A stretch of DNA of 64,000 nt. Source: Patescibacteria group bacterium (lineage in GTDB: Bacteria; Patescibacteriota; JAQUNI01). The notes under the pieces are model-generated. The model made no database searches, was not told the origin of the DNA, and worked only from the letters and a program-made list of their open reading frames with translations. Location of the stretch: assembly GCA_028717685.1 (NCBI GenBank), contig JAQUNI010000001.1, forward strand, positions 271,451 to 335,450. Direction: 5' to 3'. This document shows, one piece after another, positions 19,479 through 43,333 of this stretch (its first letter is position 1; each line of letters begins with the position of its first letter). The position numbers and the translations under genes were made by a program.

Positions 19479-21521
<2,043 letters not shown>

Positions 21522-21561
21522 TTAAAGTGAAAAATTTAAAATTGCAATTTAAAATTCAAAA

Positions 21562-21933: not shown

Positions 21934-22032
21934 TTGTAATTTTGAATTTTACATTATTATCATTATACAAAAAAACCCGCTCTTTTGAAAGGAGCGAGTT
22001 TTGGCTTTTTAAATTTTAAGTTTCAAAAAATA

Positions 22033-23583
22033 TTACGGCACTGGATCCAGAGTGGGTTGCCAGGGAGGCTGGTTAGCATTTAAAGTTTTAGCGGTGATAC
22101 GGGGAGAATAGGCGGAGCAACTGCAGAGATCGCACGCCGCCACTTCAAGCCAATAGCTGGTACTAGGAGTAAGACCAGATTGCAAACGGGTGGTCACATT
22201 GCCGACATTGACCGGCGTATTGTTATTGAGATGCGCTAAATAATAAGTGGCGCCAGAAACCGCATTCCAAGCCCAAGTGATAGAGGTAGTGGTTTGAGCC
22301 GTAGAACGCGCGTTTAGAGGAGCAGGGAGAGAGGGACAGGTGACAGTGATATTAGTTGTTGCGGTGGTGGTTAACCCGCCACGCGTTACAGTAATGCTGG
22401 CAGTTTTAGTCCCAGGCGTAGAATACCTGCATCTAAAAGAGCCACCACTAATATTGGAAATAGTGCCATCAGCGCCGCAACTCCGAGCCGAATAAGTGAT
22501 AGTGCCTGTGATTGTGCCGCCGACCGCGGTGGTAAGATCAGAAGCTTGGCCAGTGATAACACTAGCTGGACTAGCTGTCAAAGTGGCAGTTAGTGTGCCC
22601 GTGACTGTGATGCTAGATGACGCTGTTGTAGTTAACCCAGCTCGCGTTACCGTAATACTGGGATATTTATAGCCTGGTGTAGAATAGGTGCAGCTAAAAC
22701 TGCCATTGGTATAATTAATGTTGGAAATCGTGCCACCAGTACCGCAGCTCTGACCAGAATAAGTAATAGCGCCTGTGGCTGTGCCGCCGACCGTGGTAGT
22801 GAGATTAGATACTTGACCAGTAGTAATGCTAGCCGGACTGGCAGACAAAGCAGCAGTTAAGGTAAGGCAAGATTTTGTGCCCGCGCAGGTGCCGCCACAG
22901 CCATTAGAGCAAGTAGAACCAGTACAAGTATTAGCCGCGCAAGCACAGCTCGGAGCCTTGGTGCCCGCGCAGGTGCCGCCACAGCCATTAGAACAAGTAG
23001 AGCCAACGCAAGTATTGGCAGCACAAGAACAACTCGGCGACTTAGTACCTGCGCAAGTACCGCCACAACTATTATAACAAACAGAACCGACACAGGTGGA
23101 AGCAGCACAAGAACAATCTGTAATTTTGCAACCCACGTAATAGGTGGCACCACAACTATCAGAACAAGTAGAACCGGGACAAGTGTATAAGGCGCACTCA
23201 GAACTATGTATGCAACCATCACTACAACTCCCAGTATTAAATGTCTGGCCGTAAGTTTGGCAATACCCGCCACAAGAGGTGTCCTGCCCGTAACGGCTGA
23301 AATAATCAAGTCTTGCAGTTAGGACGCTGCCATTAGAGCAAGTCAAAGACGGCGTAGCGCAACCGACATAATTACCTGGGTTGCTTCCTGTGCACGTAGA
23401 ATCAATAAAAGTTGAGCTACATATTGACCAGCTCCCATCAGCACAATATATACAAATCCATCCTTGATAACAAGCAGTATGACATGTGTAGGAATAGGCG
23501 GCATTAGCTGTATGAGTGCCGAAAATAAGAATACCAAAAAAAATAGCAATCAAAATAACAACGTATTTACCTTGATGGATCAT
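22033..23583 (-). CDS. Secreted Cys-rich adhesin-like protein: Cys repeats, two PKD/Ig-like repeats, Fn3, C-terminal NQPPWQPTLDPVP
   Basis: Signal peptide; CAANTCxGSTCSNGCGGTCAGTK repeats; Fn3 ITWAWNAV...GLTPSTSYWLEVAA. Confidence 0.8.
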   Translation of the reverse strand: MIHQGKYVVILIAIFFGILIFGTHTANAAYSYTCHTACYQGWICIYCADGSWSICSSTFIDSTCTGSNPGNYVGCATPSLTCSNGSVLTARLDYFSRYGQDTSCGGYCQTYGQTFNTGSCSDGCIHSSECALYTCPGSTCSDSCGATYYVGCKITDCSCAASTCVGSVCYNSCGGTCAGTKSPSCSCAANTCVGSTCSNGCGGTCAGTKAPSCACAANTCTGSTCSNGCGGTCAGTKSCLTLTAALSASPASITTGQVSNLTTTVGGTATGAITYSGQSCGTGGTISNINYTNGSFSCTYSTPGYKYPSITVTRAGLTTTASSSITVTGTLTATLTASPASVITGQASDLTTAVGGTITGTITYSARSCGADGTISNISGGSFRCRYSTPGTKTASITVTRGGLTTTATTNITVTCPSLPAPLNARSTAQTTTSITWAWNAVSGATYYLAHLNNNTPVNVGNVTTRLQSGLTPSTSYWLEVAACDLCSCSAYSPRITAKTLNANQPPWQPTLDPVP

Positions 23584-23588
23584 AAAAA

Positions 23589-24128
23589 TTATTTTTTATA
23601 AACAGCTTTAGCCACGAAAGAATTCTGGTCAGAAATGCCCTGCTCGCTCAAAACAATAACCGTATCGCCAATTTCAAAATCAGTAAAAATTAAAACAGGC
23701 CAAGAATCTGCTTGACTTTGTGTGGAAGTACCCGAACCAAGACTAACTATTTCGGTTTGATCGTTTTTTTTAATAATTGAATAGGCACCACTCAACTGTT
23801 TCATTAGCGTTTTATCCGCAATTACCACCGCAAAGATCTTGCCTTTAAGAACTGGATTAAGCTCTTTATTATAAGATTTAATCATCAACGTCTGAGCTGA
23901 CGTATCAATACTTTCAACCGTGCCATTTAATACCGTGGCAGCGCCGGGCTCATATTCAAAGTGTTTGACATCGGCTTGTTCTTTGCCAGTCGTAGATAAT
24001 GGCGCTGGCTGATTAGTGTTACCGGGTGATATTTTAGAAGGAATGACAAAGAATATCCAATACACCAAAACAGCCCCTGCCAGAACCACTGCCGCGATAA
24101 TAATAATTATCAAAGTCTTTTTCCCCAT
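23589..24128 (-). CDS. Membrane-anchored DUF5666-like (OB-fold) protein
   Basis: N-terminal TM; GTVESID...T...DFEIGDTVIV...AKAV pattern. Confidence 0.65.
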   Translation of the reverse strand: MGKKTLIIIIIAAVVLAGAVLVYWIFFVIPSKISPGNTNQPAPLSTTGKEQADVKHFEYEPGAATVLNGTVESIDTSAQTLMIKSYNKELNPVLKGKIFAVVIADKTLMKQLSGAYSIIKKNDQTEIVSLGSGTSTQSQADSWPVLIFTDFEIGDTVIVLSEQGISDQNSFVAKAVYKK

Positions 24129-24172
24129 AAAATAAATACGTATCCTATATATAAAAAAGGTATTTTATTAGC

Positions 24173-24343
24173 TGGCTCCATAGTCTACGAGGCTAGTGAT
24201 AGTAGAGCCAGAATATACAAGATGGAGGCGTTAAAGTCGTTCAGACTTCTTCAGAACTAGAAGATCTGAAGAGATTAAAAATAACGGCCTGTATTTTGGC
24301 TCCACAGCCCCTCGCTTCGCTCGGGGACTATGGAGCCAACGAT
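24173..24343. mobile_element. REPIN/MITE-like element, second copy
   Basis: TGGCTCCATAGTC...GACTATGGAGCCAACGAT, two internal hairpins as at 11828-11971. Confidence 0.65.
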
Positions 24344-24349
24344 GGAATA

Positions 24350-26386
24350 TTATGGCACCGGTTCCAGAGTAGGTTGTCCGGGAGGCTGGTTACCACTTAG
24401 AGTATTAACCGTGACACGAGGAGAATAGGCGGAGCAACCGCAAAGATTGCACGCCGCCACTTCAAGCCAATAGCTGGTATTAGGAGTAAGACCGGATTGT
24501 AAACGAGTGGTCACATTGCCGACATTGACCGGCGTATTGTTATTGAGATGCGCTAAATAATAAGTGGCGCCAGAAACCGCATTCCAAGCCCAAGTGATAG
24601 AGATGGTGGTTTGAGCCGTAGAATGCACATTGGCAGGGCTGGGAAGAGAGAAAGCGGTATAGCACTGCCCATTCATTACATAGTCGTTGGCATTGCAACA
24701 AGCCGCCGTGCCGTCGCAAGCGCGAGCATTGGTGGGACTAATATACACTTCGCTGGCATCGTCGCTGCAACATTGAGCTTGGTTATTGGGCGGGGCAGAC
24801 TCTGGAAATTGAGAAGAGAGAAGCCAAACTCCGGTGGCTGTGGCTTTATTCGGGTTAGTTGCCGTGTTGTCCCATAGATTGGTTGCTCCTGTGCAGCAAG
24901 CCTGGCTCGTGTCAGGAGTGCAAGTGGCAGGGGCAACACAATTCACTGTGCATTCTTGTTTTTCATTAATATTACCACCTGAATATGTATTAGCGGGACA
25001 GGTAAAACTACCGGTGTCGGCAAAGCAACCGGCAGTAATCTTTAAATTTCCAGCAGTAACAGGACATTTCACGGTTCGCGATTCACTGCTCCAAGATCCC
25101 TGACCATTAATGTTAGAAGATTGACACCAGAGCACATCCCCCGAGCCAGATGTACATCCCGCGGCAGGTTGAATATTAGTAAGCCCCATCCTGACCTCAT
25201 AAGGAGAGCTAGGTCCGGTGTTGAAATATTCATAAGAAACATTAAAATTGGAACCGACATTAGCGCTAGTCGGACAGCTTAAATTGCGCAAGGAGCAGGT
25301 AGGATAATTAGTGCAATCTTTTGTGCCCGCGCAAGTGCCGCCGCAGCCATTAGAACAAGTGGAACCAGTGCATGTGTTCGCCGCGCAAGAACAATTAGGA
25401 GTTTTCGTGCCGGCAGGACATTTCTGACCACAACCATTATCTGGCTCCTGACCTAGACAATATGTGGAAGGGGCGGGACAAGAGGGCTGTTTGGTTCCCG
25501 GCGTGGAACAACTCCCGCCACAGCCATTACTCGGATGTTGGTTAGCGCAATAAGTGGAAGGATCAGGGCAGGAAGGGGCGCAAGGAGGACTTTGACAGAC
25601 TCCCCCGACACAATTGTGATTGCAACAATCTCCGGCAGAAATACAGCCTGAGACGCCATCCTCTAAACAAGGACCGCAGCAATCGCAGGTTCCGGAGGCG
25701 CAGGCGCTTTCAGGAATTCCGACGGCGGACAACAAATTTGGGCAAACATCATTCCCTACTCTGCAGGAAGCGCTTGTTGCTTGGCTGGTAGCACCCCTAT
25801 AAGAGCAAAAATCCACATTACAGGCGCGGCATTGCCTCCCTTCGCAAAAGGATCCACCGCAACACTCTGTGGCTGTACTACACGATTCACCAAGGGATTT
25901 GCAGGAGGGAGTTGAAGAACATTTACTTCCATATGAATCTTTATTGCATTGACATTTTTCCCCACTAGGACATCCGCTGCCCTCCCAACTATCCGTATGC
26001 CCTATAAAAGTATAAGAAGGTGTTCCATACCCCCCTATATCACACCTATGTGTCTCCTCTATATTACAATATACACATAAATCGGGTGTAATATCGTGGC
26101 AAGACCTTATCGAACCAGTCGTGCACCAACCACTTAGCTCTTGATAATTGAATCCATAAAACCAACCACTTGGACAACTATAATCTATCCACTTATTATT
26201 AGATCCCCACTTAAAATTATCATCCACAATACCACAGCTTTGTTCGCATGGTGTTACAGCTTTAGCTTCAGAATATAGGAAACTGAAAAAAATTATTGTA
26301 ATAAATAAAGGAGAAATAATTTGAAAAAATTTTACGGATAGCCATGAATTAGATAATTTTGCTATTTTTTGATTTTTATGTTTCAT
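24350..26386 (-). CDS. Secreted Cys-rich adhesin-like protein with Fn3 and C-terminal NQPPGQPTLEPVP
   Basis: Signal peptide; very Cys-rich; last about 95 aa nearly identical to the 22033-23583 product. Confidence 0.8.
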   Translation of the reverse strand: MKHKNQKIAKLSNSWLSVKFFQIISPLFITIIFFSFLYSEAKAVTPCEQSCGIVDDNFKWGSNNKWIDYSCPSGWFYGFNYQELSGWCTTGSIRSCHDITPDLCVYCNIEETHRCDIGGYGTPSYTFIGHTDSWEGSGCPSGEKCQCNKDSYGSKCSSTPSCKSLGESCSTATECCGGSFCEGRQCRACNVDFCSYRGATSQATSASCRVGNDVCPNLLSAVGIPESACASGTCDCCGPCLEDGVSGCISAGDCCNHNCVGGVCQSPPCAPSCPDPSTYCANQHPSNGCGGSCSTPGTKQPSCPAPSTYCLGQEPDNGCGQKCPAGTKTPNCSCAANTCTGSTCSNGCGGTCAGTKDCTNYPTCSLRNLSCPTSANVGSNFNVSYEYFNTGPSSPYEVRMGLTNIQPAAGCTSGSGDVLWCQSSNINGQGSWSSESRTVKCPVTAGNLKITAGCFADTGSFTCPANTYSGGNINEKQECTVNCVAPATCTPDTSQACCTGATNLWDNTATNPNKATATGVWLLSSQFPESAPPNNQAQCCSDDASEVYISPTNARACDGTAACCNANDYVMNGQCYTAFSLPSPANVHSTAQTTISITWAWNAVSGATYYLAHLNNNTPVNVGNVTTRLQSGLTPNTSYWLEVAACNLCGCSAYSPRVTVNTLSGNQPPGQPTLEPVP

Positions 26387-26392
26387 AAAAGC

Positions 26393-26421
26393 TTGACATA
26401 ATTAAAGAATTAATTTATACT
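26393..26421 (+). promoter_or_regulatory. Sigma70-type promoter
   Basis: TTGACA, 17 nt spacer, TATACT. Confidence 0.7.
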
Positions 26422-26519
26422 AAATTTAGTGATTGCTTCTAAAATCGTCTCTGAAATGTTTTGATTAAAGGATGATTAGCAAGAATTTTGTGACTCTTAG
26501 ATACCATGGAGGGTTTAAA

Positions 26520-27284
26520 ATGAAAAGAACTTTGATTGTTTTAGTTGTGTCCTTTATATTCGTATTAATGGTCAATGCTGATACCTCGGAAATATATATT
26601 CAGACGAAAAACCAGTCAGACATAGTGACATCAATTCCCGTTTTGTTTACTCAATCTAGATTTCTCATAATCTCCGTAGGGTTGCCGACATCAGAATTAA
26701 ACCCGAATATAACCACCGCAAAGGTTGCCCTAAACTGTAAGGTTATTGCTGTAGTAAGTAATTGCATCGCATCTATAAACGAAAACCAAGTTACCTTTAG
26801 CTGTATCCGTCCCGAGGGAGGATTTGGTAAAATTCTAGCTGAATGGCAAAGTGGACAAATTCCCACACTACCTAAATGTGATCCCCCTTCCTTGGCGATA
26901 GAAATGGAAAACCCTAAGATTTGGTCAGCCTCAGCACAACTACCGTTGGGCAGTATCTGTCAGATCAAAGCAATGGGTAGTACAATATGGGTCAAAGGAA
27001 GCAAGGTACGTTGGACCGATTGGAGTAATGTTGAACTCATTAATAGACCCGGCGACATAAATCTGGATGGTGTCGTGAATATTCTGGATTTAGTGGCAAT
27101 ATCAAAACAATTTGGTGTTCCAGTATCTCCAGAGGTCCCGGAGGATATGAACTGGGATGGAGTGATTAATAGAGAAGATCTAATGTTGGTGGGCGAAAAA
27201 TTCGGTACGAAATATAGTAGTGTCCCCCAACCCGCGCCTCCCAATCGGACCATTATAACCTGGTCTTCCATCAAATTAAGGTGA
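26520..27284 (+). CDS. Secreted dockerin-type-I domain protein with TWSSIK C-terminal motif
   Basis: GGAGG SD + MKRTL signal peptide; GDINLDGVVNILDLV...DMNWDGVINREDL duplicated EF-hand-like repeats. Confidence 0.8.
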   Translation: MKRTLIVLVVSFIFVLMVNADTSEIYIQTKNQSDIVTSIPVLFTQSRFLIISVGLPTSELNPNITTAKVALNCKVIAVVSNCIASINENQVTFSCIRPEGGFGKILAEWQSGQIPTLPKCDPPSLAIEMENPKIWSASAQLPLGSICQIKAMGSTIWVKGSKVRWTDWSNVELINRPGDINLDGVVNILDLVAISKQFGVPVSPEVPEDMNWDGVINREDLMLVGEKFGTKYSSVPQPAPPNRTIITWSSIKLR

Positions 27285-27500
27285 ATTCTGACCACAATCA
27301 AAGAGCCTTTCCGTTCTTTGCACTGTGGTCTTTTTTATTATTTCAAAAAGCTCGGATAACCCCCTCTACCCCTTTTGAGGAAAAACATTAGACCCCCTCT
27401 CACACTCCCCGCAGGTCAAGGAGAAGAAGTGCAACTGCTGGACTCCATAGTTTTCCGTTCAAGCCGGACTATGGAAACAACGCGCGAGCAAGGTTTGGAA

Positions 27501-27986
27501 TTATTTTATCTCCACCACCTGCACGGCGGCGGCGGTAATAGTGTTTTTGCCGTTGATATTTTCCCCTGCCACAATATTCACTTCATCCCCCACTTTAAGA
27601 TCGGACAAAGAGATATCCTCGGTTTTTAAAGGATCATCAGGATTAGAAGGAACAACGCGGCGGGAGTAATGTGTGTCTTCCTGCAATTCAGCTGTAAAAT
27701 CAGTGTCTTCTGCTAAAAAATAATTCTGCTCCTTTTTCGCCTGAACCTTTAACGCGCCATCTTGAATTTCCGTAATCTTACCCATTAAAGAATAAAATAC
27801 CTCTTCCGTGTTCACGGCGAAAGAGGGATTCTGGGGCGGGGAGAAAACTGCGGGAGTTTTTTCTCCTTTAGGCCAGAAAAAGGCAACAAAGATCAAACCC
27901 CCCACAATAACAACTCCAATTACAAAAAGAATAATCCAGGAAGCAAGACCGGATTTTTTATTTTGAGCGCGTAAGGTTGAAGACAT
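27501..27986 (-). CDS. Membrane-anchored DUF5666-like (OB-fold) protein
   Basis: TM; GKITEI...T...SDLKVGDEVNI...AAAVQV. Confidence 0.7.
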   Translation of the reverse strand: MSSTLRAQNKKSGLASWIILFVIGVVIVGGLIFVAFFWPKGEKTPAVFSPPQNPSFAVNTEEVFYSLMGKITEIQDGALKVQAKKEQNYFLAEDTDFTAELQEDTHYSRRVVPSNPDDPLKTEDISLSDLKVGDEVNIVAGENINGKNTITAAAVQVVEIK

Positions 27987-28100
27987 ATAATTTTAATAAA
28001 ATATTAGTTTTTATTTTAACGCTAACAACTCCCTTTCATTAGATTATGTTTAGCGGCTTGCTTCTATTATACTACGGACTAAGAATGCCGTAAAATCCAA

Positions 28101-29696
28101 TCAAGGTTTAATGCCAGACCAAGAAGGAAGAAGCGTGGCGGGGTCCAAAAATCCCGGCGGAGGATTCACCAGAACCCGGCCATCATATTTCACTAATTCT
28201 GAAGGCGTATTATCGGCGTCTGTATATCTTCTTTCCAAATTCAAAGCATTGCGGGCAACGAGGGATCCCTCAATAACCAATCCCGTGTCTTCGGTATCAG
28301 CCGTATAAACATCGCCCCAGACATAAAAATTACCCACGATATGCTTCACATTGGCTTGAATTATTAAATCCCCGCCTATGACAAAGCCCGCCGACGGTAT
28401 TTTCGCCCGTTCATCCACCGTCCCCATATTCGGATCATAATAAACATTATTGGCAATAGACAAATCGCCATCCACGACCACCGTCCCCCCTCTTGCTAAA
28501 AAGAGGGCGGGGGGCTCGCTATTCAAAATAGCGGGCGGCTTTGGAATAATGGGATTCGCCGCGATTGTTAAATTGCCATCGCAGTAACGAATATTGCGGT
28601 CGCGCTGGTCACCATTCCCCCATAAAGAAGTGGTTTGGGGTAAAATGGGAGAATCCGGAATATGCACTGCCTGCCAATAACTATCCGAACAATTCGGGCT
28701 TAACCCTTCCGTTAAAGATTGTTTATCCACTGCCGTAAAAACAAGATTCTTATGAGGAGGATAAGGAGTGAAAATTTGGTTAATGCCGCTTGTAACATTG
28801 CTATTAATGCCTTGTCGGGCGGTAATCACGGAATCGGCTGTATTGTTTCCCCGCGTCTCTCTATTGTTAATGCCGCCATTGCTGTGAATGTCGCCCCAGA
28901 TCGTCTGCCACCAAGCTTCGCCCACAATCACCCATTTGTCATCTTGACACCCTCCACTCCCACAGTCAGGATTCGCCGCGGTAATCTCAACATGATTTTG
29001 CACCGTACTATTAATTCTTAAACTTAACTGAATGCTGTAACTGCCTGGCGCCACAGTATTAAAATCCCAATAAAAAGTGTCTCCCACCCGTCGACTCCAA
29101 GTTGGATTAGCGCCTAAAACTACAGCTCCCCCGCCCACGGGTGTATACTTTATTTCTAAACCGTAAGCGTTGTCATTAGCCACGGTATAACTAATGGAAT
29201 AGGAAGCGGTAGTACCCGCGCTGACCCTTGAGGGACCGCTATCAAAATCAACGGTTAAAAGCGCGTTATTATGAATATCGCAAGAGATGTTAGATGAGGG
29301 ACTAGAAGTATTCCCATTAATATCAGTGGCTGTGCTGTAAACAGAGTACAGATTCTTAATGGAAAAGCTATGATTTGCCTGCTGCAACGTACCCGAAGGA
29401 ACAGTACCGGAGCTAGGCGCTCTGGTATTACTGCTGCCATCATTCCAAAAAAATGTGTAGTAAAGCTGATCACCTTCTGGATCGCTGGCTCTGGATTCAA
29501 AAGTGTAACCCTGATTTACAAAGCCTATGCAAATGGGCTGACTGAGGCGGCTGCATCTGCATTTGCCGTTAGCGTCAGGGTCACAGTTAAAAAAAGTGGC
29601 GGCTTGGGCGATCAAAAGATTAAAAAAGAACGTCGCGGAGACGAAAATAAAAACCGCGCCTAAGATTTTGATGTTTTTTATCGTTTTAGAACTCAT
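28101..29696 (-). CDS. Secreted pilus-locus protein: PKD-like domain, Ig/DUF11-like domain, CPR-type C-terminal beta-helix ending PPPG
   Basis: Signal peptide from MSSK; YTFESRASDPEGDQLYYTFFWNDG; WWQTIWGDIHSNG...VVDGDLSI...GSLVA...YDGRVLVNPPPG. Confidence 0.75.
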   Translation of the reverse strand: MSSKTIKNIKILGAVFIFVSATFFFNLLIAQAATFFNCDPDANGKCRCSRLSQPICIGFVNQGYTFESRASDPEGDQLYYTFFWNDGSSNTRAPSSGTVPSGTLQQANHSFSIKNLYSVYSTATDINGNTSSPSSNISCDIHNNALLTVDFDSGPSRVSAGTTASYSISYTVANDNAYGLEIKYTPVGGGAVVLGANPTWSRRVGDTFYWDFNTVAPGSYSIQLSLRINSTVQNHVEITAANPDCGSGGCQDDKWVIVGEAWWQTIWGDIHSNGGINNRETRGNNTADSVITARQGINSNVTSGINQIFTPYPPHKNLVFTAVDKQSLTEGLSPNCSDSYWQAVHIPDSPILPQTTSLWGNGDQRDRNIRYCDGNLTIAANPIIPKPPAILNSEPPALFLARGGTVVVDGDLSIANNVYYDPNMGTVDERAKIPSAGFVIGGDLIIQANVKHIVGNFYVWGDVYTADTEDTGLVIEGSLVARNALNLERRYTDADNTPSELVKYDGRVLVNPPPGFLDPATLLPSWSGIKP

Positions 29697-29703
29697 AAGA
29701 AAA

Positions 29704-30342
29704 TTAACGATAATCACTTTTATCTATTCGGATTGCCCGAAACACCGTATCACGAGCGCTCTTCACCATACCCAAAACAAGAATTTGATCGCCGATTTCA
29801 AGTTCACTGACTTTGATCTTGCTCACCTGAAATAATACCTTGCCATCTTCCGCTTCCACGGTGCGCGGCACAGTAACCAATCTTATTTCCGTATCCGCAG
29901 TGATTTGCGCTTTGAGCTTTTTCTGGCCTTGTTCCGCGGACGGCTCCTCAAAGGCAAGGAAATCCGACCCTATTTCTGTAATGGAGCCGCTGTGCATAAT
30001 AATGAATTCACTAGGCGCGCTCGGCACCTTTGGCTTCGCTTCAGCGGTGGAAGATCTAGACCCACTTGCTTCTTGCTCGAGTGTTTCACTGGTAGAAGAT
30101 GGCGAGGCGCCGCTCGGAGCGCTTTCCTGCTCGCTCCCCTTCGCAATACTACCCTCATAATCGGGAGGGGCTACTGGAATCTTTTGATGCTCCGGAAAAT
30201 TTGTCGCAACTGGACTGGTATCGCCCGAAGGAAAGGATGGAACAATCTCTTCTGGTTTTTGTACAAAATAAATCTGGTAAACGCAAAACCCAGCAATAAC
30301 CAATAAGAAAAATAAAAATAGGAAAAGTTTATGGGAAAGCAT
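29704..30342 (-). CDS. Membrane-anchored DUF5666-like (OB-fold) protein
   Basis: TM, Ser/Pro/Glu linker, GSITEI...T...SELEIGDQILV...AIRI. Confidence 0.7.
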   Translation of the reverse strand: MLSHKLFLFLFFLLVIAGFCVYQIYFVQKPEEIVPSFPSGDTSPVATNFPEHQKIPVAPPDYEGSIAKGSEQESAPSGASPSSTSETLEQEASGSRSSTAEAKPKVPSAPSEFIIMHSGSITEIGSDFLAFEEPSAEQGQKKLKAQITADTEIRLVTVPRTVEAEDGKVLFQVSKIKVSELEIGDQILVLGMVKSARDTVFRAIRIDKSDYR

Positions 30343-30469: not shown

Positions 30470-31300
30470 TCACTTGCTTAGGCTCTGCTCGGAAAAAATT
30501 ACATAGTCAAAATAACCCGACACTCCGGCCTTAGTGCTGCTATAAGTGGACTCGATCGCTTTTTTATAAGACGAAAAAATGCCTACAGAATCAATTCTTA
30601 CTTTATCCGTAATATCAACTCCATTATCAAAACAAATCTGAAAATCGGAAACAAAATCCTTCAATGGTTTAACGCGCACTAGGTTATTCGGTTTATTCAC
30701 AAGTTGCCGCACAATTTCTCCTCCTTCACTCTGTAACTCCCCATAATCAAAGGTCTCTTTATAAACCGTCTGCGTTCCCTGCCCAAATTTATAATTAGCT
30801 AAACTTTCAGGACCAAAGTCGCTAAAATTGTCTTCCCAGCCCAACCACGTTACCTCCACCTCTTCATTGGCATTACCCAGCCTTTGCGACCAAGACAAAT
30901 GCATTCTCGTGGAATTGCCTAGATTATCAAAATCTAAGGTTTCATCCATATCTAAACTATCTTGGGTATAATAATTGCTACAATTAAAAGTATCATCCAC
31001 GGTGTAGCTATAATTGGCGCTCGTCAGTTCGCGAAGGGGGGTATTAGGCATATTACTGGTATTCCCATTAACCATAATCTCATAAAGAGCTCTTTCCATG
31101 CCGCTGTCCGCCGCGTAATAAGCAATAATACCGCTACCCACATCCCTGGCCATCTTGATATTTCTCAAGGTGAGGGTGGCAATTATTAAACTAACCAAAG
31201 AGACAGTGCCTAATACAAGAAGGGCATAAAGCAAGGCAACACCGGACCTAGATGTTTTCAAAAATACACGGTGATTTAATTTTAATCTTGCTGACCTCAT
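30470..31300 (-). CDS. PilX-like minor pilin
   Basis: SG|VALLYALLVL (no Glu5) and AYYAADSGMERAL. Confidence 0.8.
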   Translation of the reverse strand: MRSARLKLNHRVFLKTSRSGVALLYALLVLGTVSLVSLIIATLTLRNIKMARDVGSGIIAYYAADSGMERALYEIMVNGNTSNMPNTPLRELTSANYSYTVDDTFNCSNYYTQDSLDMDETLDFDNLGNSTRMHLSWSQRLGNANEEVEVTWLGWEDNFSDFGPESLANYKFGQGTQTVYKETFDYGELQSEGGEIVRQLVNKPNNLVRVKPLKDFVSDFQICFDNGVDITDKVRIDSVGIFSSYKKAIESTYSSTKAGVSGYFDYVIFSEQSLSK

Positions 31301-31999
31301 TTATCTTTTATAAATCCTCTGCGTGATTGTGGTCTGAACCCGAATAGAAGCCTGCTCTTCCGGCTTTGCTGTATTTTTGCTCTGGCTTAAACTCAAAACG
31401 ATTGTTACCCGCGGCTGTTCATTTGTTCCTCCGGAAACAAAAGGGTCAGTCACGGGCACAATCCAGAATTTCAAATCATCCACCTTCACCTGATTACTTA
31501 AAATATTCTCTGCCGCCGCCGTCCCTATCTGCATTTTTAATTTATTGTCGCCGCCTTTAAAAAAGGTAATACTCTCCTTGTCCTGACGCACTAAAACCAA
31601 GGAAGAGGCGGGGTTATTGATAGAACCACTGTAATCAATACCATACCGCCTTACCGTTTGGGCGATTGTTTCCAGGGCATGAGATGCCTCGAACTGCACC
31701 TTTTGATCAATGCTATTCTTGCGTTGAGCTTTTGTGATGGACAAAAAAATGCCGCAGATTGCCACTAGCGCCAAAGCAAATACCGCCATTGCCACCAACA
31801 TTTCAATGACTGTAAACCCCGTTAGCCCCGTTAAGAATTTATTTCTAACGGGATGAACTTTCTTTAACGGGATAAACCCCCTGCCGCGTTTTTTAAACCA
31901 AACCGCGCGCGACAAAAATCCGCATCTCTCTCTTGATGCCGCGAAAATTTCAACATTGCGTGTTTGCGTATTATTTGTTGATCCCATATATTGCTTCAT
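31301..31999 (-). CDS. PilW/PulJ-like minor pilin
   Basis: G|FTVIEMLVAM prepilin motif after an extended leader. Confidence 0.85.
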   Translation of the reverse strand: MKQYMGSTNNTQTRNVEIFAASRERCGFLSRAVWFKKRGRGFIPLKKVHPVRNKFLTGLTGFTVIEMLVAMAVFALALVAICGIFLSITKAQRKNSIDQKVQFEASHALETIAQTVRRYGIDYSGSINNPASSLVLVRQDKESITFFKGGDNKLKMQIGTAAAENILSNQVKVDDLKFWIVPVTDPFVSGGTNEQPRVTIVLSLSQSKNTAKPEEQASIRVQTTITQRIYKR

Positions 32000-32044
32000 C
32001 CACAGCGGGATACCCCATCATGTGGTTTCCCATTTGCTCTAAAA

Positions 32045-32677
32045 CTAAAAATCACGCCAATTATATAAATGCGCTTCTACTTTGACTATTTTGTTTTTCC
32101 AACCCACTTCGCTCACAATCACAACCGCATTGCCGCTTGTATATTTACGGATTGCACGGCTGTATTGTGTTGCTGTTCCTGCCGCGTGAGTATAAAACCC
32201 GTTTGCGTCTAGATAAAGCTGTTTGTTCGCCGAGGGAGAACATCCCCCTCCTCTGCACCCCAAATAACCAGTGTAATCCACTACGTAATAATCATTGGCG
32301 CTGTTGTTGCGGTTATTTTTCATAGGATTACTGCCGCTAAAAAGATTATCGCCTGCGAGCCAATAGGAATCGCGGGAAGCGCGCACTAATTCTATGCCCT
32401 CTTCGGCTAAATAGTAGGCAGTGGTTTTTTCCTTCATCTGACGCATCGCCGTAGTGGAATATATGACCAAAGAAAGACTGCCAATAAGTCCAACAACGAT
32501 GATAAAAATCGCGATCAGAGTCTCCAGAAGCGTCATCCCTTCTTCCCCATTCGCCACGGGCTTACGAGGCGCAACGCGGCAATATGCAGGGCGCTGGGCA
32601 GGCGGGAATATCCCGCTGCAGCATCTATAAATAAATGTTAACGGGATGAAAAAGAATCGTTTTAAATTAATTTTCAT
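32045..32677 (-). CDS. PilV-like minor pilin
   Basis: G|MTLLETLIAI and AYYLAEEGIELVR. Confidence 0.85.
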   Translation of the reverse strand: MKINLKRFFFIPLTFIYRCCSGIFPPAQRPAYCRVAPRKPVANGEEGMTLLETLIAIFIIVVGLIGSLSLVIYSTTAMRQMKEKTTAYYLAEEGIELVRASRDSYWLAGDNLFSGSNPMKNNRNNSANDYYVVDYTGYLGCRGGGCSPSANKQLYLDANGFYTHAAGTATQYSRAIRKYTSGNAVVIVSEVGWKNKIVKVEAHLYNWRDF

Positions 32678-32771
32678 AAAATTAATTCTTCAGCAAGCCC
32701 CGTTAGAAATTTATTTCTAACGGGGCTAACGGGGTAAAGTTCAGGATAATATTCTGAATAAATCCGAAGCA

Positions 32772-33290
32772 TTAAAAACTGCTCTCTATTAACCCTGAAC
32801 TAGCGTCTACAAAAACTGTGCCTATATGTCCTATGCTATTTGTAAAAGTAATCGTTAAAGATTCATGTCCATTAATCCACATCGCGCCGTGGGGGGACTT
32901 GAAAATAATAGTGTCATTTATAGGATTCATCGTGATTTTAGAAGGCAGAGTAATAACCTCCAAAGCCTCGCCTGAATCGCTCTGACCGTTATCGTTTTTG
33001 TCCGCGAAAAAAGTATAAACATTGTTTGAGGTCAAATAAACTCCGCACCCGCCAGGGACGCTGCCGTTGATTATCTTGCCGCCAGCAACCATTGTCTGCG
33101 CCTGCCTTAAAACATTGGCCATATTTTGCACCGCAAAGCGCAGGTTGGTCTCCTCATTGCCTTTGCGCATATTAGCCACCAAGATCGCGGCAATCAACCC
33201 AATAACAAAACTCACTATGAGCATTTCTACTATAGTGAAGCCCCTTTGAAAAAAAACGCTTTTTTTGCGACGCAGTATGTATGGAATAAT
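32772..33290 (-). CDS. FimU/GspH-like minor pilin (start codon uncertain)
   Basis: Frame extends upstream of the listed Met: IIPYILRRKKSVFFQRG|FTIVEMLIV; in-frame stop at 33300-33302. Confidence 0.8.
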   Translation of the reverse strand: MIPYILRRKKSVFFQRGFTIVEMLIVSFVIGLIAAILVANMRKGNEETNLRFAVQNMANVLRQAQTMVAGGKIINGSVPGGCGVYLTSNNVYTFFADKNDNGQSDSGEALEVITLPSKITMNPINDTIIFKSPHGAMWINGHESLTITFTNSIGHIGTVFVDASSGLIESSF

Positions 33291-33506
33291 TTTTAATTTC
33301 TAATTTTTCTGGCTTCGCTAGATCTCGCACAGCGAGACAATTTTTATTAAATTTATAATTAACTATTTTTTAAACTTGTATCAATCAGGGGGTGAAAAAG
33401 TTTGAAAATTAACTTATTGAAAATTTAATAAAAATTAGAAATTGAAAATTGTTCCAACCTTCTTGTCAACGGTTGGGTTCTTACTTTTGTGAAATGGTTT
33501 CATTCT

Positions 33507-33896
33507 TTACCCCGGGCCAGTCTCGCCACCGCTTTTGTATCCCTCATACGGAATAAAAGGGTTATCCCGCCCTACTGGCCCCACCTCTATAGGCACCTCG
33601 CCAAATATAACCAACTGGGAAAAACGCGGATCAGTAAGTAAATCGGTTTTGAGCTTAGAAGAGGGAATATTTTGCGAGGGAGTGGCAATACTGGGGGCAG
33701 CCACAATCGCCCCAGGCACTACCGGAGTAATATCAGGCACTGCTCCAAGTTCTGCTGGCACAGGCTCTGAAGATTTCTTGCCAAAAAAACTAGTATATAA
33801 TAGATAACCAGCTACTAAAATCGCTACCAGAAAAATACCTATAAGTATTGTTTGCTTGCGTTTAGCTTTGTCCATAATAGTAAATTTATTACTCAA
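33507..33896 (-). CDS. Pilus-locus membrane protein (PilP-position)
   Basis: TM, Pro-rich linker, GRDNPF motif; follows pilO. Confidence 0.7.
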   Translation of the reverse strand: MSNKFTIMDKAKRKQTILIGIFLVAILVAGYLLYTSFFGKKSSEPVPAELGAVPDITPVVPGAIVAAPSIATPSQNIPSSKLKTDLLTDPRFSQLVIFGEVPIEVGPVGRDNPFIPYEGYKSGGETGPG

Positions 33897-33968
33897 TTGT
33901 TCGATTGCTCAATTGTTGGAATTTAACCTTCATCTTCAACTTCAACAATAGAACAATCAAACAATAAT

Positions 33969-34688
33969 TTATTTTAAGTAGTACGTCCTTAACTCTATTT
34001 TAAAAGTTAAAACCCTGTCTTCAAATTTCACTCCACCCACCTCGCCTTCACCGCTCTTACTGGATTGAGAATCGCCTCCTTTGGTGTCAAAATCCACGGA
34101 AACTACATCTAAAAACCGTAAGTTTTTTTGCACATCTTCTAAATATCGCATAAAAACATCATACCGTCCGGTTAAAGAGAGAGAGACTTTTAAAGTCGCA
34201 TAACCTTCGCTTGGAGCTGGAGAGACTAGAGGAACCATCGCGGGAAGATTAGAGGCAGTATTATTATCTTGGGTTTTATTTTGCCCTAAATCCGCCGCGT
34301 CTGTCGCTGGAGGCTCTATAGGATTCTCACTCCCCTTCTTAATTTCTTCGCTATAACTCACTTCTTCCATGAGGATTCCATTTTTTATGGCGAGAGCTTC
34401 CAGTTGAACCAAAAGATTGGGTATATCCTTTTCCGAAGGCAAGGCTAAACTCAAAGTGCGCACCTGCTCTTTGACGCCCTCATAATCTTTGACTAACTTT
34501 TTTGTGTCTTCTAGAGCCTTCTTGCTGTTCGCGAGACTTGTTTCTTCTCCTTTGATCTGCGTCCCTATATTCCTCCAAGCATCATACTGCGGCTTTAAGA
34601 AATAAAAACCCGCCCCTATCGCCACCAAAATGACTACTATAATGATCAGATTTGAATTTTTGTAAATCGTCTTAATGTTAAATTGCAT
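33969..34688 (-). CDS. pilO: Type IV pilus assembly protein PilO
   Basis: TM + coiled coil; ALPSEKDIPNLL; GRYDVFMRYL...LR. Confidence 0.85.
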   Translation of the reverse strand: MQFNIKTIYKNSNLIIIVVILVAIGAGFYFLKPQYDAWRNIGTQIKGEETSLANSKKALEDTKKLVKDYEGVKEQVRTLSLALPSEKDIPNLLVQLEALAIKNGILMEEVSYSEEIKKGSENPIEPPATDAADLGQNKTQDNNTASNLPAMVPLVSPAPSEGYATLKVSLSLTGRYDVFMRYLEDVQKNLRFLDVVSVDFDTKGGDSQSSKSGEGEVGGVKFEDRVLTFKIELRTYYLK

Positions 34689-34927
34689 AATGTCAGAACT
34701 TTTTAATTTTTAATGCTTCGGCTTTGCTCAGCGCCTCTTCAAGCTCTTCGAGTCTGAAGACTCATCCCGTTCAGGATCTGAGACCCTTCAGGGTCGAACG
34801 ACAGAGTCTGAACGGCCTGAACTTTGCTGGAGGGTTAATTTTTTAGCCCAAGGCGCCCTAGAAGCGCGGAAATTTTGAATTTATCCCGCAACTTCGTGAG
34901 AGAATACCATGTAGGGAGGCGCGGGAT

Positions 34928-35482
34928 TTATTTTTGCCACGCCTCTTCCTTAAAGGTTAAATCAGCCTGGAAAGAAATCACGGCTTGATCTTCAGTAACA
35001 TCCAAGCTCGCAGATGCGACCTCCACTTTTTCTATAGATTGTTGCTGCTCCCAGGCTTTAAGTTGGCGGGCTAAAGATTGATAATTTCGCGTATAAGCGG
35101 GGAGGCTAACCTTACGGCTATCAATATCACCTTTGAAACTCGTATAAAAAACATCGGGAATAGTAACATCACCCAAGGTCTGAAAAAACGCGACCCAATA
35201 CATCCGACGGTTCAAAAGCCGATCCAAACTATCCAACTGTTTCTGGGCGATAAGCGCTTGAGCAAGCTGTGCTTTCGAATCTTGGATTTCTTTATTCACC
35301 CCTTCAGCCTGGCTCTTTAGACCACTTAGTTTGGCATCCTCTCTCTTCTGCAAGAAAGAAAAACCAAAATATACCCCTCCTCCTAAAAGTATAATCAAGG
35401 CCAATACAAAAATACTGATGTTGCGCAACTTCTTCTTGCGTTTTTCCCCTTCATCTTCAGGGATTAAATCAATTTTGAGCAT
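34928..35482 (-). CDS. pilN: Type IV pilus assembly protein PilN
   Basis: KIDLIP N-terminal motif, TM, coiled coil. Confidence 0.8.
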   Translation of the reverse strand: MLKIDLIPEDEGEKRKKKLRNISIFVLALIILLGGGVYFGFSFLQKREDAKLSGLKSQAEGVNKEIQDSKAQLAQALIAQKQLDSLDRLLNRRMYWVAFFQTLGDVTIPDVFYTSFKGDIDSRKVSLPAYTRNYQSLARQLKAWEQQQSIEKVEVASASLDVTEDQAVISFQADLTFKEEAWQK

Positions 35483-35696
35483 AAAATTTTAATATTTTAT
35501 TTTGATTTCGTTGAGAACTAATTATCTAACTGATGTGATATAATTATCCTCCTTAATTTGATAATTTTAAATTTTAATTCAATTTTAAAATCCTAATTTT
35601 AAATTTTAAAACCAAGGGAAAGAAGAAAGGGTTTTAAAATTAAAAAATTTAAAATTTGGATTTGATTTAAAATTTAGAATTTAAAATTCAAATTAT

Positions 35697-36329
35697 TTAC
35701 TCTACTTTCTTCCCGCATCTCAAGCACTTCAAAAATCCCGTAACCCATTTCCCTTCCCTGCCCGTGTCCTGCACCACATCTAAAACTAAAGAGCCGCCGC
35801 AACTTCCGCAAGAAAATTTGGGATCCACCCCTAAAGCTTTTGCCAACCGCACTGCATCGCCACGGTATTGATCTAACCTTAAATTAAAATGCCCTCCTAA
35901 TTTCTCACCCCCTGAAGATACTACAGACTTCGGTCTTCCTAGATGCCCTCTCACTTTTTCCACGACATCATCAGGCGAAAAGGTCGCTTGAATCAAAAAA
36001 TCATCCGCCCCCAAAGATAAGGCTTTGTCAATATCCTCCTGACGACCTAAATGTGAAAAAACCAAAACCGGAGTATCCTTCATCTGGGCGTCTTTTTTTA
36101 AAGTATTGATTACTTCAAAACCATCTACGCGCGGCATCATAATCCCCGTAATCACTAGATCCGGCTTTTTCTCAAAAGCGACGTTTAAACCATCTAATCC
36201 ATCTTTTGCTTCAAAAACATCAAAGCCTTCCTGCTTAAACTTTTTAGCATAAATTCCCCTTAAATCTACCGCGTCATCAATAAGTAAAACACTAGATCTT
36301 TTGCTTTGATTTTGATCTTTTTGATTCAT
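35697..36329 (-). CDS. Response regulator receiver with C-terminal zinc ribbon
   Basis: VLLIDD...KPDLVITGIMMPRVDG; CGSC and CLRC. Confidence 0.85.
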   Translation of the reverse strand: MNQKDQNQSKRSSVLLIDDAVDLRGIYAKKFKQEGFDVFEAKDGLDGLNVAFEKKPDLVITGIMMPRVDGFEVINTLKKDAQMKDTPVLVFSHLGRQEDIDKALSLGADDFLIQATFSPDDVVEKVRGHLGRPKSVVSSGGEKLGGHFNLRLDQYRGDAVRLAKALGVDPKFSCGSCGGSLVLDVVQDTGREGKWVTGFLKCLRCGKKVE

Positions 36330-36344
36330 AAAATAAGATTTAAA

Positions 36345-37112
36345 TTAAGTAATTAAATTCAAATACCATTTCAAAATTCTCTCCCCCTCCAGCATAGTAA
36401 TGATAGCCGCGATGGTTAGAAAAGTGCCAAAAGGCACCGCGCTCTTTAAAGTCTTCTTCTGGAGAGCTATCAATAACAAACCAACTATACTGCCCAAGAC
36501 AAAGGCAATAAACAATGCGACTAAAACTTGAGACCAGCCCAAAATGAAGCCTAAAAGAAATCCGAGTTTAACATCCCCTCCCCCCATCCACTTGCCTTTG
36601 GACACTAAAACAATTATAGCAAAAAATCCTCCTGATATCAAACTGCCTAAAAGCGCTGCCGGAAAACTAGGCTTCCCTAAGAAGATAGTTGCCAGAATTG
36701 CCAATGTCGCGCCCAACAAGATTATTTTATCAAGAATTAAATAATACTTCAAATCATACACAAAGATCACAACGAAAATACTAACAAAAAATAAATTAAA
36801 AAACAGCAAAGGATTTATACTTCCGACTTTTATATAGAAAAGAGCAAATAAAACGCCGCAAGTCAGCTCAACCAAAGGATACTGCCAGCTTACTCTTTTA
36901 TGACAGTAACGGCACTTGCCGCCTAGGATAATAAAACTTGCTACCGGAATCAAATCATACCAAGCTAAGCGGTGTTTACAGAAAGGGCAAAAGGAGGAGG
37001 GGTGAATAAGAGACTTTTTGATTTTGGAGCGATAAATGACGACATTAAGAAAACTGCCGACAGAGAGACCGAATAAAAATATAATTAATAAATTTAATGT
37101 AGGTATTAGCAA
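36345..37112 (-). CDS. pilD: Prepilin peptidase
   Basis: GSFLNVVIYR, CPFC/CRYC, YDLK, MGGGDVKL, PFGTFL. Confidence 0.96.
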   Translation of the reverse strand: MLIPTLNLLIIFLFGLSVGSFLNVVIYRSKIKKSLIHPSSFCPFCKHRLAWYDLIPVASFIILGGKCRYCHKRVSWQYPLVELTCGVLFALFYIKVGSINPLLFFNLFFVSIFVVIFVYDLKYYLILDKIILLGATLAILATIFLGKPSFPAALLGSLISGGFFAIIVLVSKGKWMGGGDVKLGFLLGFILGWSQVLVALFIAFVLGSIVGLLLIALQKKTLKSAVPFGTFLTIAAIITMLEGERILKWYLNLIT

Positions 37113-37403
37113 AATTTTTAATTTCTAATTTTCAATTTTCATTAAATTTCTATTTTTGAAATTTCTAAACTGAAAAAGTTAATCTCTCAACGTTTAAAAA
37201 TTAATTCATTAAAAATTTAATAGAAATTAAAAATTTAAAATTAGAAATTATTACACAATAAAGCAAATATATTAACGTTTTACTAAAGGCGTGTCTTCTA
37301 AAAGAAACTTAAAATCCACGCCCTTAGTGAGGTAGTGAAATCCTAGCCAGGATCCTGTTCTGCGCACATCCAGGATTTGCAATCTACCCCACTATAACCT
37401 AAT

Positions 37404-37802
37404 TTAAGGCTTGCACCAACCGCCGACAGGATTACTATTCTCCAAAGTCGTGCAAATCGTGTAAGAACTAGGCGGGGTGCCAGTAGGAGTGTAAGTATAT
37501 CCCGCTCCTTCCGCTGCGCAGGCATTTTGAGGATCGCAAGGCACTTTCGCGGTGGGGAAATATTTATCAAGCCCCGCATCTGTCAACGCTGCCGGGTATT
37601 GAGGGGTAGTCTGATCATCATAATACATCTCTAAAGCAAGACTGATATTAGTAACATCGCTCTTCCTTTGGGCATCGCGGGCTTTGCTACGCGCCGAGTT
37701 TAAAGAAACCATTACAACTGCCGCCAAAATACCGATAATCGCGATCACAACCAGCAACTCAATCAGGGTAAACCCTCCTTTTTTACGAAAAATTTTACGC
37801 AT
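37404..37802 (-). CDS. Type IV pilin (major-type)
   Basis: AGGAGGTG SD; G|FTLIELLVVIAIIGILA...ARSKARDAQRKSD. Confidence 0.93.
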   Translation of the reverse strand: MRKIFRKKGGFTLIELLVVIAIIGILAAVVMVSLNSARSKARDAQRKSDVTNISLALEMYYDDQTTPQYPAALTDAGLDKYFPTAKVPCDPQNACAAEGAGYTYTPTGTPPSSYTICTTLENSNPVGGWCKP

Positions 37803-38014
37803 TGAAGTCACCTCCTTTCTTTGATATTGATTTTTAAATAAATCGATGATTTATTTTTGTTTAAATTTACCTTCGCACCAGAAAGCCACGAGCTTAAAGC
37901 CCTGTAAACACGAAGACTGATTTTTTCCCAACACCTTTTTTTGTTCCTTAATCCGCTCTTTTGAAGAAGGATAATCTATCTCTCGCCGGTCCCTTCAAGA
38001 CAAATTGCGGTACC

Positions 38015-38443
38015 CTACGGTTTGCCAAAATAGTCTGTATCATTATCCAACTGAGCGGACAGGCAATAATTACTGCAGGGTTGAGCGGCGCAGGCAGTGC
38101 CGCAGGCACCACAGGAACCATTAGCGGCTTTAGGCACAACGGCATTACAACCTACATAAGTGTATGTATGACCACCGGGGTCGGTGGGAATTTTCGGCAT
38201 ATAAGTTGTCAAAACAGCTAAACCTTGCGCTGTGGTTGGATAGCTAGGGGTCGTTTGGGCATCATAATACATTTCTAATGCCAAACTAAAATTGGTAATA
38301 TCACTTTTTCTCTGGGCATCGCGGGCTTTAGCGCGCGCTGAATTGAGGGAAACCATCACAATCGCAGCTAGAAGTCCGATAATCGCGATCACAACCAGCA
38401 ATTCTATTAGGGTAAACCCTCTAGACCTGAAAATTTTGCGCAT
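38015..38443 (-). CDS. Type IV pilin (major-type, Cys-rich tip)
   Basis: GGAGGTG SD; G|FTLIELLVVIAIIGLLA. Confidence 0.93.
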   Translation of the reverse strand: MRKIFRSRGFTLIELLVVIAIIGLLAAIVMVSLNSARAKARDAQRKSDITNFSLALEMYYDAQTTPSYPTTAQGLAVLTTYMPKIPTDPGGHTYTYVGCNAVVPKAANGSCGACGTACAAQPCSNYCLSAQLDNDTDYFGKP

Positions 38444-38498
38444 TTATTTTATCCACCTCCCTTCTGATGAAATTTTAAATTCAGAATTAAAAATTAAT

Positions 38499-38978
38499 TT
38501 ACGGACCTGTGGTGTGCTGACCTTCGCTGCCAGCAGTAGAATTGGTCTCTAAAGTATACCGAAATTGATACTTCTTTGTGGTTGACGCGTAACAATATTC
38601 ATAAACCTGCGCCGGATACAAAGGATCATGCGGCGCGTCTCCGACTGAAAAAAGTTTTTGACCAATAAGAGCGGCAGATAAGGCATCGCTCGCGCCATTC
38701 ATAGTAATCCACGTATTATTATCGCAATCACCTGCCACGACATAAGTACCAATATTATTATTATAAAACTCTAATCCGGTTTTAATATTCTTCACATCAG
38801 CAATCCTTCGCGCGTCCCGCGACTTCGCCTTTGTATTAGTCAAGCTTACCACCACTATCGCCGCCAACAAGCCAATAATGGCGATTACAACGAGCAACTC
38901 AACTAAGGTAAAACCCCACGCCAAAGATTTTGGTATGGGAGTAATTCCATTCTTGTTTTGTAATTTCTTATTTTGCAT
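38499..38978 (-). CDS. Type IV pilin
   Basis: G|FTLVELLVVIAIIGLLA...KSRDARRIAD. Confidence 0.92.
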   Translation of the reverse strand: MQNKKLQNKNGITPIPKSLAWGFTLVELLVVIAIIGLLAAIVVVSLTNTKAKSRDARRIADVKNIKTGLEFYNNNIGTYVVAGDCDNNTWITMNGASDALSAALIGQKLFSVGDAPHDPLYPAQVYEYCYASTTKKYQFRYTLETNSTAGSEGQHTTGP

Positions 38979-39086
38979 TTTTATTTTACCTACTCGCCTT
39001 GCAGAGCGAGGCGGGCGGGCGTTTTGTGTTATACGCTTTCCGCTTTCAGCAGGACGAAATTAGCTTTCAGCGTGACAAAGTCCGTT

Positions 39087-40295: not shown

Positions 40296-40333
40296 GGAAA
40301 TAAAGTTAAAAGTGAAAAGTGGAGAATGAAATC

Positions 40334-41410: not shown

Positions 41411-41481
41411 AAATTAAAAGTTAAATCTTAAGTTCATTTTATCCCTAGCCTTAACTTTTGCGATCTGACCTCTAACTTTTT

Positions 41482-43287: not shown

Positions 43288-43333
43288 AAATTACTTCTTA
43301 CGCTTTAGGATGTCGCTCGCGAACGACATCCTT

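Follow-up and report, generated by a model that had tools for sequence, protein, structure and literature searches.

The 64,000-nucleotide stretch of DNA analysed here (the window), from a 1.1-Mb patescibacterial genome, encodes a secreted protein with an incomplete PKD domain (the core) and two separately secreted Cys-rich proteins (A and B) whose C-terminal tails resemble the β-strand that the core domain lacks. A type IV pilus locus on the minus strand has the three genes at its downstream end. Sequence comparison indicates that the PKD domain is split between two genes at the end of its first strand. This reading is built on the absence of the strand, the register in which tail and domain match, the co-occurrence of the two parts in two lineages, their joint disappearance from one fusion and the conserved sequence of the tail. 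With a probability of roughly 65%, strand complementation in trans would extend the tip of the type IV pilus by a second tier of adhesin modules; these tail-bearing modules probably bind the host.

The core (531 residues; positions 28101..29696, minus strand) contains a signal peptide, a Cys-rich segment, the strand-less PKD domain, a second immunoglobulin (Ig)-like domain, a β-solenoid and a C-terminal LPSWSGIKP. It starts with an ATG at 29696, with an in-frame GTG at 29717, and its sequence reads ...CRCSRLSQPICIGFVNQGYTFESRASDPEGDQLYYTFFWNDG. The mature protein was modelled with AlphaFold2 (mean predicted local distance difference test score, pLDDT, 68). Model residues 21–110, in blocks of pLDDT 76–93, superpose on residues 11–96 of the solved PKD domain 4XED (Z 11.9, root-mean-square deviation 2.0); the PKD body, the predicted acceptor, spans 29268..29537 (minus strand) and profile columns 24–101. 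The N-terminal Cys-rich segment of the mature core (29538..29600, minus strand; ATFFNCDPDANGKCRCSRLSQ) has no first-strand motif, a profile score of −11.5 and pLDDT blocks of 36 and 46. Residues 1–14 are modelled at pLDDT below 50, and the first modelled strand comprises residues 22–26. The core's own Cys segment, named by the earlier note as what might complete the fold, is neither modelled as a strand nor endowed with the motif. A profile of 13 cores matches 4XED with an E-value of 1e-11, which identifies the domain as PKD, and the PKD body is conserved across these 13 aligned cores. The Pfam PKD family scores above cut-off on the core of genome G678 and below it on the window core (E 0.06); Foldseek with the whole core returned generic Ig matches only. 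The genome has 4593 stop-to-stop frames, of which two contain a DPxGD-type motif: the core and an Asp-rich repeat unrelated to it.

The solved domain 4XED starts with ANDPPNIPNVTGP, and within it NDPPNIPNVTGP is the motif that closes both Cys-rich proteins. The first-strand motif, NxPPxxPx[IV]xGP, is absent from the core chain and is present instead at the ends of other proteins. From 1.84 billion proteins, a profile search yielded 362 distinct intact PKD repeats; Nx[PA]P lies upstream in 256 of them, at exactly 29 residues before DP in 206 of these. Intact PKD domains of the candidate phyla radiation (CPR) have first strands close to the tails, for example NQPPSAPVISG. When aligned to a profile of 363 intact domains, all 11 tested tails fell at columns 5–17, with weak scores (−0.8 to 4.6 bits), and 12 cores began at columns 21–27, while an intact CPR control covered columns 7–98. 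The proposal of the earlier note that the core lacks this strand is supported by profile alignment. A first-strand weight matrix built from 360 intact repeats (intact median score 21.8) gave no more than 0.7 for any of 19 core N-terminal segments, 7.0 and 2.5 for the window tails, −0.1 for the motif of a relative from another genus (G003, below) and 3.6–18.6 for the tails of a second lineage (family f174, below). On the first-strand profile, the window tails rank first and fifth among the 890 C-termini of the genome. A second, 'short class' strand profile, in which they rank first and third of 890, mixed two registers and is not relied on.

Protein A (678 residues, 69 Cys; 24350..26386, minus strand) ends with an FN3 domain followed by tail A (NQPPGQPTLEPVP and the stop; 24350..24391), a predicted donor strand. 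Protein B (516 residues, 44 Cys; 22033..23583, minus strand) comprises Cys repeats, two Ig-like repeats, FN3 and tail B (NQPPWQPTLDPVP and the stop; 22033..22074), likewise a predicted donor. Both are presumed adhesins. The two tails count as a single observation because both sit in one 300-nucleotide duplication of FN3 plus tail (22029..22328, 89% identical to 24346–24645), a correction to the earlier note. No other such tails occur among the stop-to-stop frames of the genome. That both proteins end in the strand motif beside a core without it was confirmed from the sequences, and the stops are identical in the independent assembly G001. The three signal peptides claimed by the earlier note also agree with the sequences: the core, A and B each have one N-terminal hydrophobic stretch and no other, with A-x-A cleavage sites read by eye. 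The 84-nucleotide Cys repeats (CSCAANTCTGSTCSNGCGGTCAGTK; 22867–23205 and 25313–25414) are common to A and B, and modules are shuffled among paralogues in the window genome (G000) and G001. A sortase- or PEP-CTERM-type signal at the tail was considered and rejected, there being no hydrophobic helix after it.

The order of the window genome is represented by four genomes in the collection used. One relative's core is 94% identical to that of the window. G001 carries both tail proteins and another Cys-rich gene that is cut by the contig end. In G003, which belongs to another genus, the core is about 37% identical, and a 705-residue Cys-rich protein encoded upstream of it carries NQPPDPPIIEPP, with no FN3 directly before the motif. 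G002 holds a tail remnant ending in TQPPGQPTLEPVQ and a stop; compared with the tail of protein A over 11 codons, it shows seven synonymous and no replacement differences, and 9 of the 11 preceding residues differ. An intact motif-bearing gene is therefore found in three of the four genomes, as G002 keeps only the remnant. Window-type cores carry a Cys-rich N-terminal segment of 34–40 residues. An intact first strand before the N-terminal PKD of a core was found in none of the loci and proteins inspected, and there were no longer fused relatives of the window core among 7993 candidates, a result of little weight. The modules appear interchangeable, as the earlier note had supposed, to the extent that two paralogues occur per genome in G000 and G001, and in those two genomes only.

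A second lineage came from the 1.84-billion-protein search, which returned five long proteins that share the core C-terminal domain and start with a signal peptide and a strand-less PKD domain. They belong to family f174, of another CPR class, in which one protein cluster is named Candidatus Veblenbacteria by its sources. A strand-less core together with upstream DNA is available in 8 of the 21 f174 genomes (G785 was left out of this assessable set), and all eight show the gene of a long secreted protein with the tail at its end, then a DUF5666-like gene and the core, with pilM next in order wherever the contig extends to it. The tails, each followed by the stop, are NLAPNKPNLR, NLPPNKPAVN, NAAPAKPVVQ, NEAPAKPVTQ, NQPPSKPSIE, NKEPAKPNLR, NKAPAKPVTQ and NVKPQPPTLR, the last known from 22 residues at a contig start. 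They end about where the f174 cores begin. Six of the eight cores have just 21–23 residues between the signal peptide and DP, and therefore too few for a first strand. The domain preceding the tail varies between FN3 in the window, Cys-rich in G003 and Ig-like in f174. In one f174 genome (G567), a single 1330-residue protein fuses the adhesin N-terminus to the core C-terminus, and the tail, the small gene and the core PKD are all gone. The fusion is nested among split cores on a solenoid tree (90 domains; a quick, unrooted tree whose careful search is unfinished) and, on sequence grounds, is secondary, with coupled loss of all three parts. The other 11 f174 genomes have cores without PKD; genome-wide pattern matches were found in three of them, none ending a long frame. 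Well-supported branches of this quick tree separate window-type from f174 cores, which are thus not sisters, so the module was either gained twice or moved between lineages.

The f174 adhesins open with a divergent domain of PKD type in which the first strand is likewise missing (weak profile scores, 3–25 bits). Acceptor and donor would then lie in one chain and could allow head-to-tail chains, as in the Pam pili of CPR. No domain of this kind was seen at the N-termini of proteins A and B, which would be terminal modules. Upstream of the f174 adhesins, a membrane-anchored single-PKD protein carries a first-strand-like motif on a long loop (L138:345-800, L145:2119-2562, L146:18742-19176, L142:4417-4881 and L143:13027-13491); it is kept in G567 and may be a chaperone, a cap or an anchor.

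The core C-terminal domain itself recurs in many CPR pilus loci and was matched in 49 of 401 genomes of the phylum, a count that includes G153, flagged as unpublished, on which no other claim rests. In the twenty neighbourhoods of this domain that were inspected, most copies have a long N-terminal region fused to them; none of the neighbourhoods contained an N-terminal PKD or a true tail, and two flagged tails were discarded as antisense frames. Further strand-less cores are P0005, P0009, P0010, P0020, P0067, P0129 and P0132; P0020 could not be placed in a genome, two having been searched. In a third family, f167, pilX and two DUF5666-like genes are followed in two of three genomes by the gene of a secreted protein that opens with a strand-less PKD and has no solenoid, as read in G423, the G480 copy being cut by the contig end. 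The G423 gene lies in the same ligA-gatA neighbourhood as in the window, and a cut-off CPANLPPSKPTITPP occurs near a contig end. Both examined genomes without an intact tail gene that gave a clear motif match have a cut-off tail a few codons behind a stop (G002:C39, L047 about 1490-1600; G423:C23, L271:1486-1648); these may be cassettes broken by an insertion just upstream of the tail.

Small membrane-anchored DUF5666-like proteins, which the earlier note had not mentioned, accompany these genes. In the window, one such minus-strand gene lies directly before the core (29704..30342; a possible assembly factor), one at 27501..27986 (Pfam DUF5666 E 0.068, below cut-off; Atlas lead 0.83) and one directly before protein B (23589..24128). 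The three form one family, all Pfam matches being below cut-off, and one precedes each of the three secreted genes, with an opposite-strand gene intervening in the case of protein A. In each of the three lineages, f167 included, the gene immediately ahead of the strand-less PKD gene is DUF5666-like. On the question of a PapD/FimC-like chaperone, the small proteins yielded DUF5666 leads only.

In the proposed mechanism, all parts would leave the cell separately through their own signal peptides. The core, a secreted and likely pilus-tip protein, would be attached through its C-terminal half. Its second Ig-like domain (28914..29267, minus strand; model residues 109–228) matches CLIPPER, CARDB and pilin Ig folds (best Z 11–12.5) and is followed by a ComZ/DUF3494-like β-solenoid with a conserved C-terminal tail (28101..28901, minus strand). 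The solenoid resembles DUF3494 proteins (Z 12–13; 7BWX, Z 13.0) and ComZ (6QVI; Z 11.0, root-mean-square deviation 4.2 over 190 aligned residues), with many stretches at pLDDT below 50. Neither a pilin helix nor a pilin fold is present in the core chain, which opens with a signal-peptide-like stretch and the PKD. A PilX-like minor pilin is encoded just upstream (30470..31300, minus strand; PilX_N E 0.0044, below cut-off). The solenoid and the C-terminal W-x-x-[IV]-x-P tail of the core may complete this pilin, as in a split ComZ and as the PilC/PilY1 tails do; we infer that the pilin and the core together equal a split ComZ, the conserved core end serving as the last strand. Each Cys-rich protein would plug its predicted tail strand into the core PKD in trans and be displayed as an alternative module. 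The donor would lie against PKD strand B and restore a continuous Ig row able to bear retraction load, and the DUF5666-like proteins might aid assembly, perhaps by binding the incomplete domain before the tail arrives. The probable origin of the system is a fused adhesin-core gene that split within a PKD domain.

Several findings weigh against this mechanism. In G002, which shares its genus with the window genome (98% complete, 90 contigs), the strand-less core is intact but only a 37-residue remnant of the tail is left, behind stop codons and on a different contig from the core. No tail gene was found in f167, with 28 of 28 and 30 of 34 motif matches examined. Acceptors can thus occur with no intact donor, be it through loss, incomplete assembly or the small protein acting as constant partner, and the co-occurrence anticipated by the earlier note, complete in the eight f174 genomes, is not strict. 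The G003 motif has 54 further residues after it, and the window tails score low for the family (6th and 2nd percentile of intact strands). The window core has 39 residues before DP, with five Cys in this region, enough to cover its own groove, and an odd Cys count (nine) that could shield it; its model was built on an alignment of only 16 sequences. The independent contrasts are few, namely two lineages and one loss, since the 11 negative f174 genomes form one clade (10 placed on the tree) and count as a single contrast.

Some of these findings would also fit a strand-less PKD completed by the disulfide-linked N-terminal segment of the core or by the neighbouring DUF5666-like protein, the tails being optional or transient. 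This is unlikely, though it accounts for the core kept in G002, for the 34–40-residue Cys-rich segment of window-type cores and for the small gene adjoining the strand-less PKD gene in three lineages, one of which has no detected tail gene. The N-terminal segment is modelled with low confidence and lacks the motif, the f174 and f167 cores leave no room for a substitute strand, and the register match and conservation of the tails would go unexplained.

Even less probable is that the tail docks on another partner, the PilX-like pilin or a DUF5666-like protein, and resembles a PKD strand by ancestry only. C-terminal peptides of about 10 residues do dock PilC/PilY1 on PilK/PilX in the available text of PMC12918778 and PMC13711793, and each tail-bearing gene of the window comes after a DUF5666-like gene, although the tail-bearing proteins have no PKD acceptor. 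However, presence of the tail tracks the strand-less PKD and not the pilus genes, which the negative loci have too; the core has a conserved C-terminal tail of its own that would dock on PilX; and the tail and the core PKD were lost together in G567. As the small gene was also lost there, the DUF5666-like protein may be the partner of the tail.

The least probable account, a functionless scar of a fusion that broke inside the PKD and left two non-interacting halves, draws on the adhesin-then-core gene order in G003 and f174, on the long fused N-terminal regions usual for this core in CPR and on the remnants in G002 and G423, and it is opposed by the core's own signal peptide, a small gene inserted at the junction in two lineages, a tail kept behind unrelated domains with synonymous change only and the conserved PKD body. 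The earlier note had argued against a broken gene from the core being transcribed first; this argument is weak, because G003 and f174 have the tail gene before the core, the order that a split ancestral gene would give. A hidden join at the DNA level (frameshift, read-through or inversion) was rejected: whole genes intervene and the core has its own signal peptide. The long repeats at the locus are the FN3-tail duplication and internal adhesin repeats.

The trans-complementation reading could be extended to a general one, in which CPR type IV pili carry a modular tip fibril of naturally split PKD domains (PilX, core, adhesin and further modules), each joined by a donated first strand, with dedicated membrane-anchored DUF5666-like chaperones assembling it, f174 adhesins chainable head to tail and host range changing as tail-bearing cassettes are gained, lost or swapped; we hold this extension to be speculative and would sooner doubt than accept it. 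Pili are the main suspects in host recognition by CPR episymbionts. A joint of a 13-residue peptide and a 90-residue domain would be a small one by which variable modules mount on a conserved tip protein. The solenoid protein, widespread in CPR and without a name, is a likely counterpart of PilY1/ComZ, and the data suggest a first role for DUF5666-like proteins. They also offer a motif by which tip adhesins could be recognised in uncultured genomes and, in the natural split Ig domain, a candidate peptide-tag pair.

The remaining pilus locus (31301..44410, minus strand; Pfam scan) contains minor pilins, PilO, PilN, a prepilin peptidase, pilins, PilC (T2SSF), two T2SSE-family ATPases and PilM. 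The PilX-like pilin ends in FDYVIFSEQSLSK, kept in close relatives (L001, L003); the f167 PilX end is KPNWVIY. Beyond PilX, the core lies between the first and second of the small membrane-anchored genes; an unrelated dockerin gene on the plus strand separates these from protein A, and the third small gene stands between proteins A and B. A short gene and two genes that we take to be ligA and gatA come after protein B. In three genomes the cassette is broken at the same position by a gene for a secreted protein on the opposite strand (26472–27284, plus strand, in the window; L001:13288-13875; L039:524-1255). It is a different gene in each, dockerin-bearing in the window, always with a terminal [TV]Wxx[IL][KR] motif, and the site, with its own promoter-like sequence at 26393–26421, resembles an insertion hot spot. 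The interval 21511–21955, where a short gene (21562–21933), presumably of the four-helix-bundle type, lies between 44-nucleotide AT-rich inverted repeats, resembles a small mobile element; a similar gene is present in the G779 pilus locus (L146:2179-2571). Promoter and terminator scans gave nothing informative. In G437 (L259:4061-10999), large secreted proteins carry NRPNRPTL or NRAPNKPTL motifs, one near the C-terminus, beside a PKD-domain protein, perhaps another use of the strand.

The closest parallels are found among pilus tips. In the available text of PMC12918778 and PMC13711793, the tip adhesins PilC/PilY1 dock on PilK/PilX by C-terminal β-strand addition, supplying the last strand of the pilin fold in trans; the main text of PMC12918778 makes no mention of CPR. 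As predicted for the window, these adhesins are secreted separately and complete a sheet of a type IV pilus tip component with a short strand at their C-terminus, and Kingella has two alternative adhesins with the same tail in what is accessible of those accounts. The window proteins likewise have their genes beside those of minor pilins in a type IV pilus locus. Their acceptor would, by contrast, lie one tier further out, as the PKD Ig domain of a protein that is not a pilin, and the donor would be that domain's own lost first strand. No PilY1 β-propeller was matched by Pfam in the core, modelled as Ig, Ig and solenoid, or in either adhesin. In Thermus ComZ, a solenoid is inserted into a pilin fold after the penultimate strand and ahead of the last one, and a place at the tip is proposed (PMC6561018, in its accessible part). 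The core has a predicted β-solenoid of similar shape and differs in having no pilin helix, the pilin part probably being the separate PilX-like gene; ComZ itself has no PKD acceptor.

Within CPR, the Saccharibacteria Pam pili are built of truncated Ig-like domains that donor-strand exchange completes, and membrane-anchored chaperones are predicted for them (PMC13278184, in the text available). In the window, an Ig domain likewise misses one strand and a matching strand ends other proteins, where it is predicted to act as donor. On the same partial account, Pam differs in forming a stand-alone filament outside a type IV pilus locus, in using an internal linker strand as donor and in having PapD-like chaperones with a C-terminal helix, whereas the small window proteins are N-terminally anchored and DUF5666-like. 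The novelty that the earlier note saw for CPR pili is accordingly narrowed: tip strand addition and CPR donor-strand exchange are both in print, and a split PKD connector tier, or a role of DUF5666 in pili, was not found in the open-access text searched. The Myxococcus Kil Tad pili, as far as the available text of PMC12075869 goes, have interchangeable tips and so share alternative variable tip modules on one pilus, but exchange whole minor-pilin trimers, unlike the plug on a shared core predicted here. The archaeal/CPR PKD subtype (4XED; PF00801, PF18911) has the same fold and the motifs GxxxxxYxFxxxAxDPxGD and WxDG; the window domain differs in being split, by all sequence indications, over two genes at the end of its first strand. 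Chaperone-usher pili are assembled by strand complementation, to which the predicted docking of tail and PKD may be likened. The split-PKD system likely works like PilC/PilY1 tail docking and chaperone-usher complementation, as a member of neither family.

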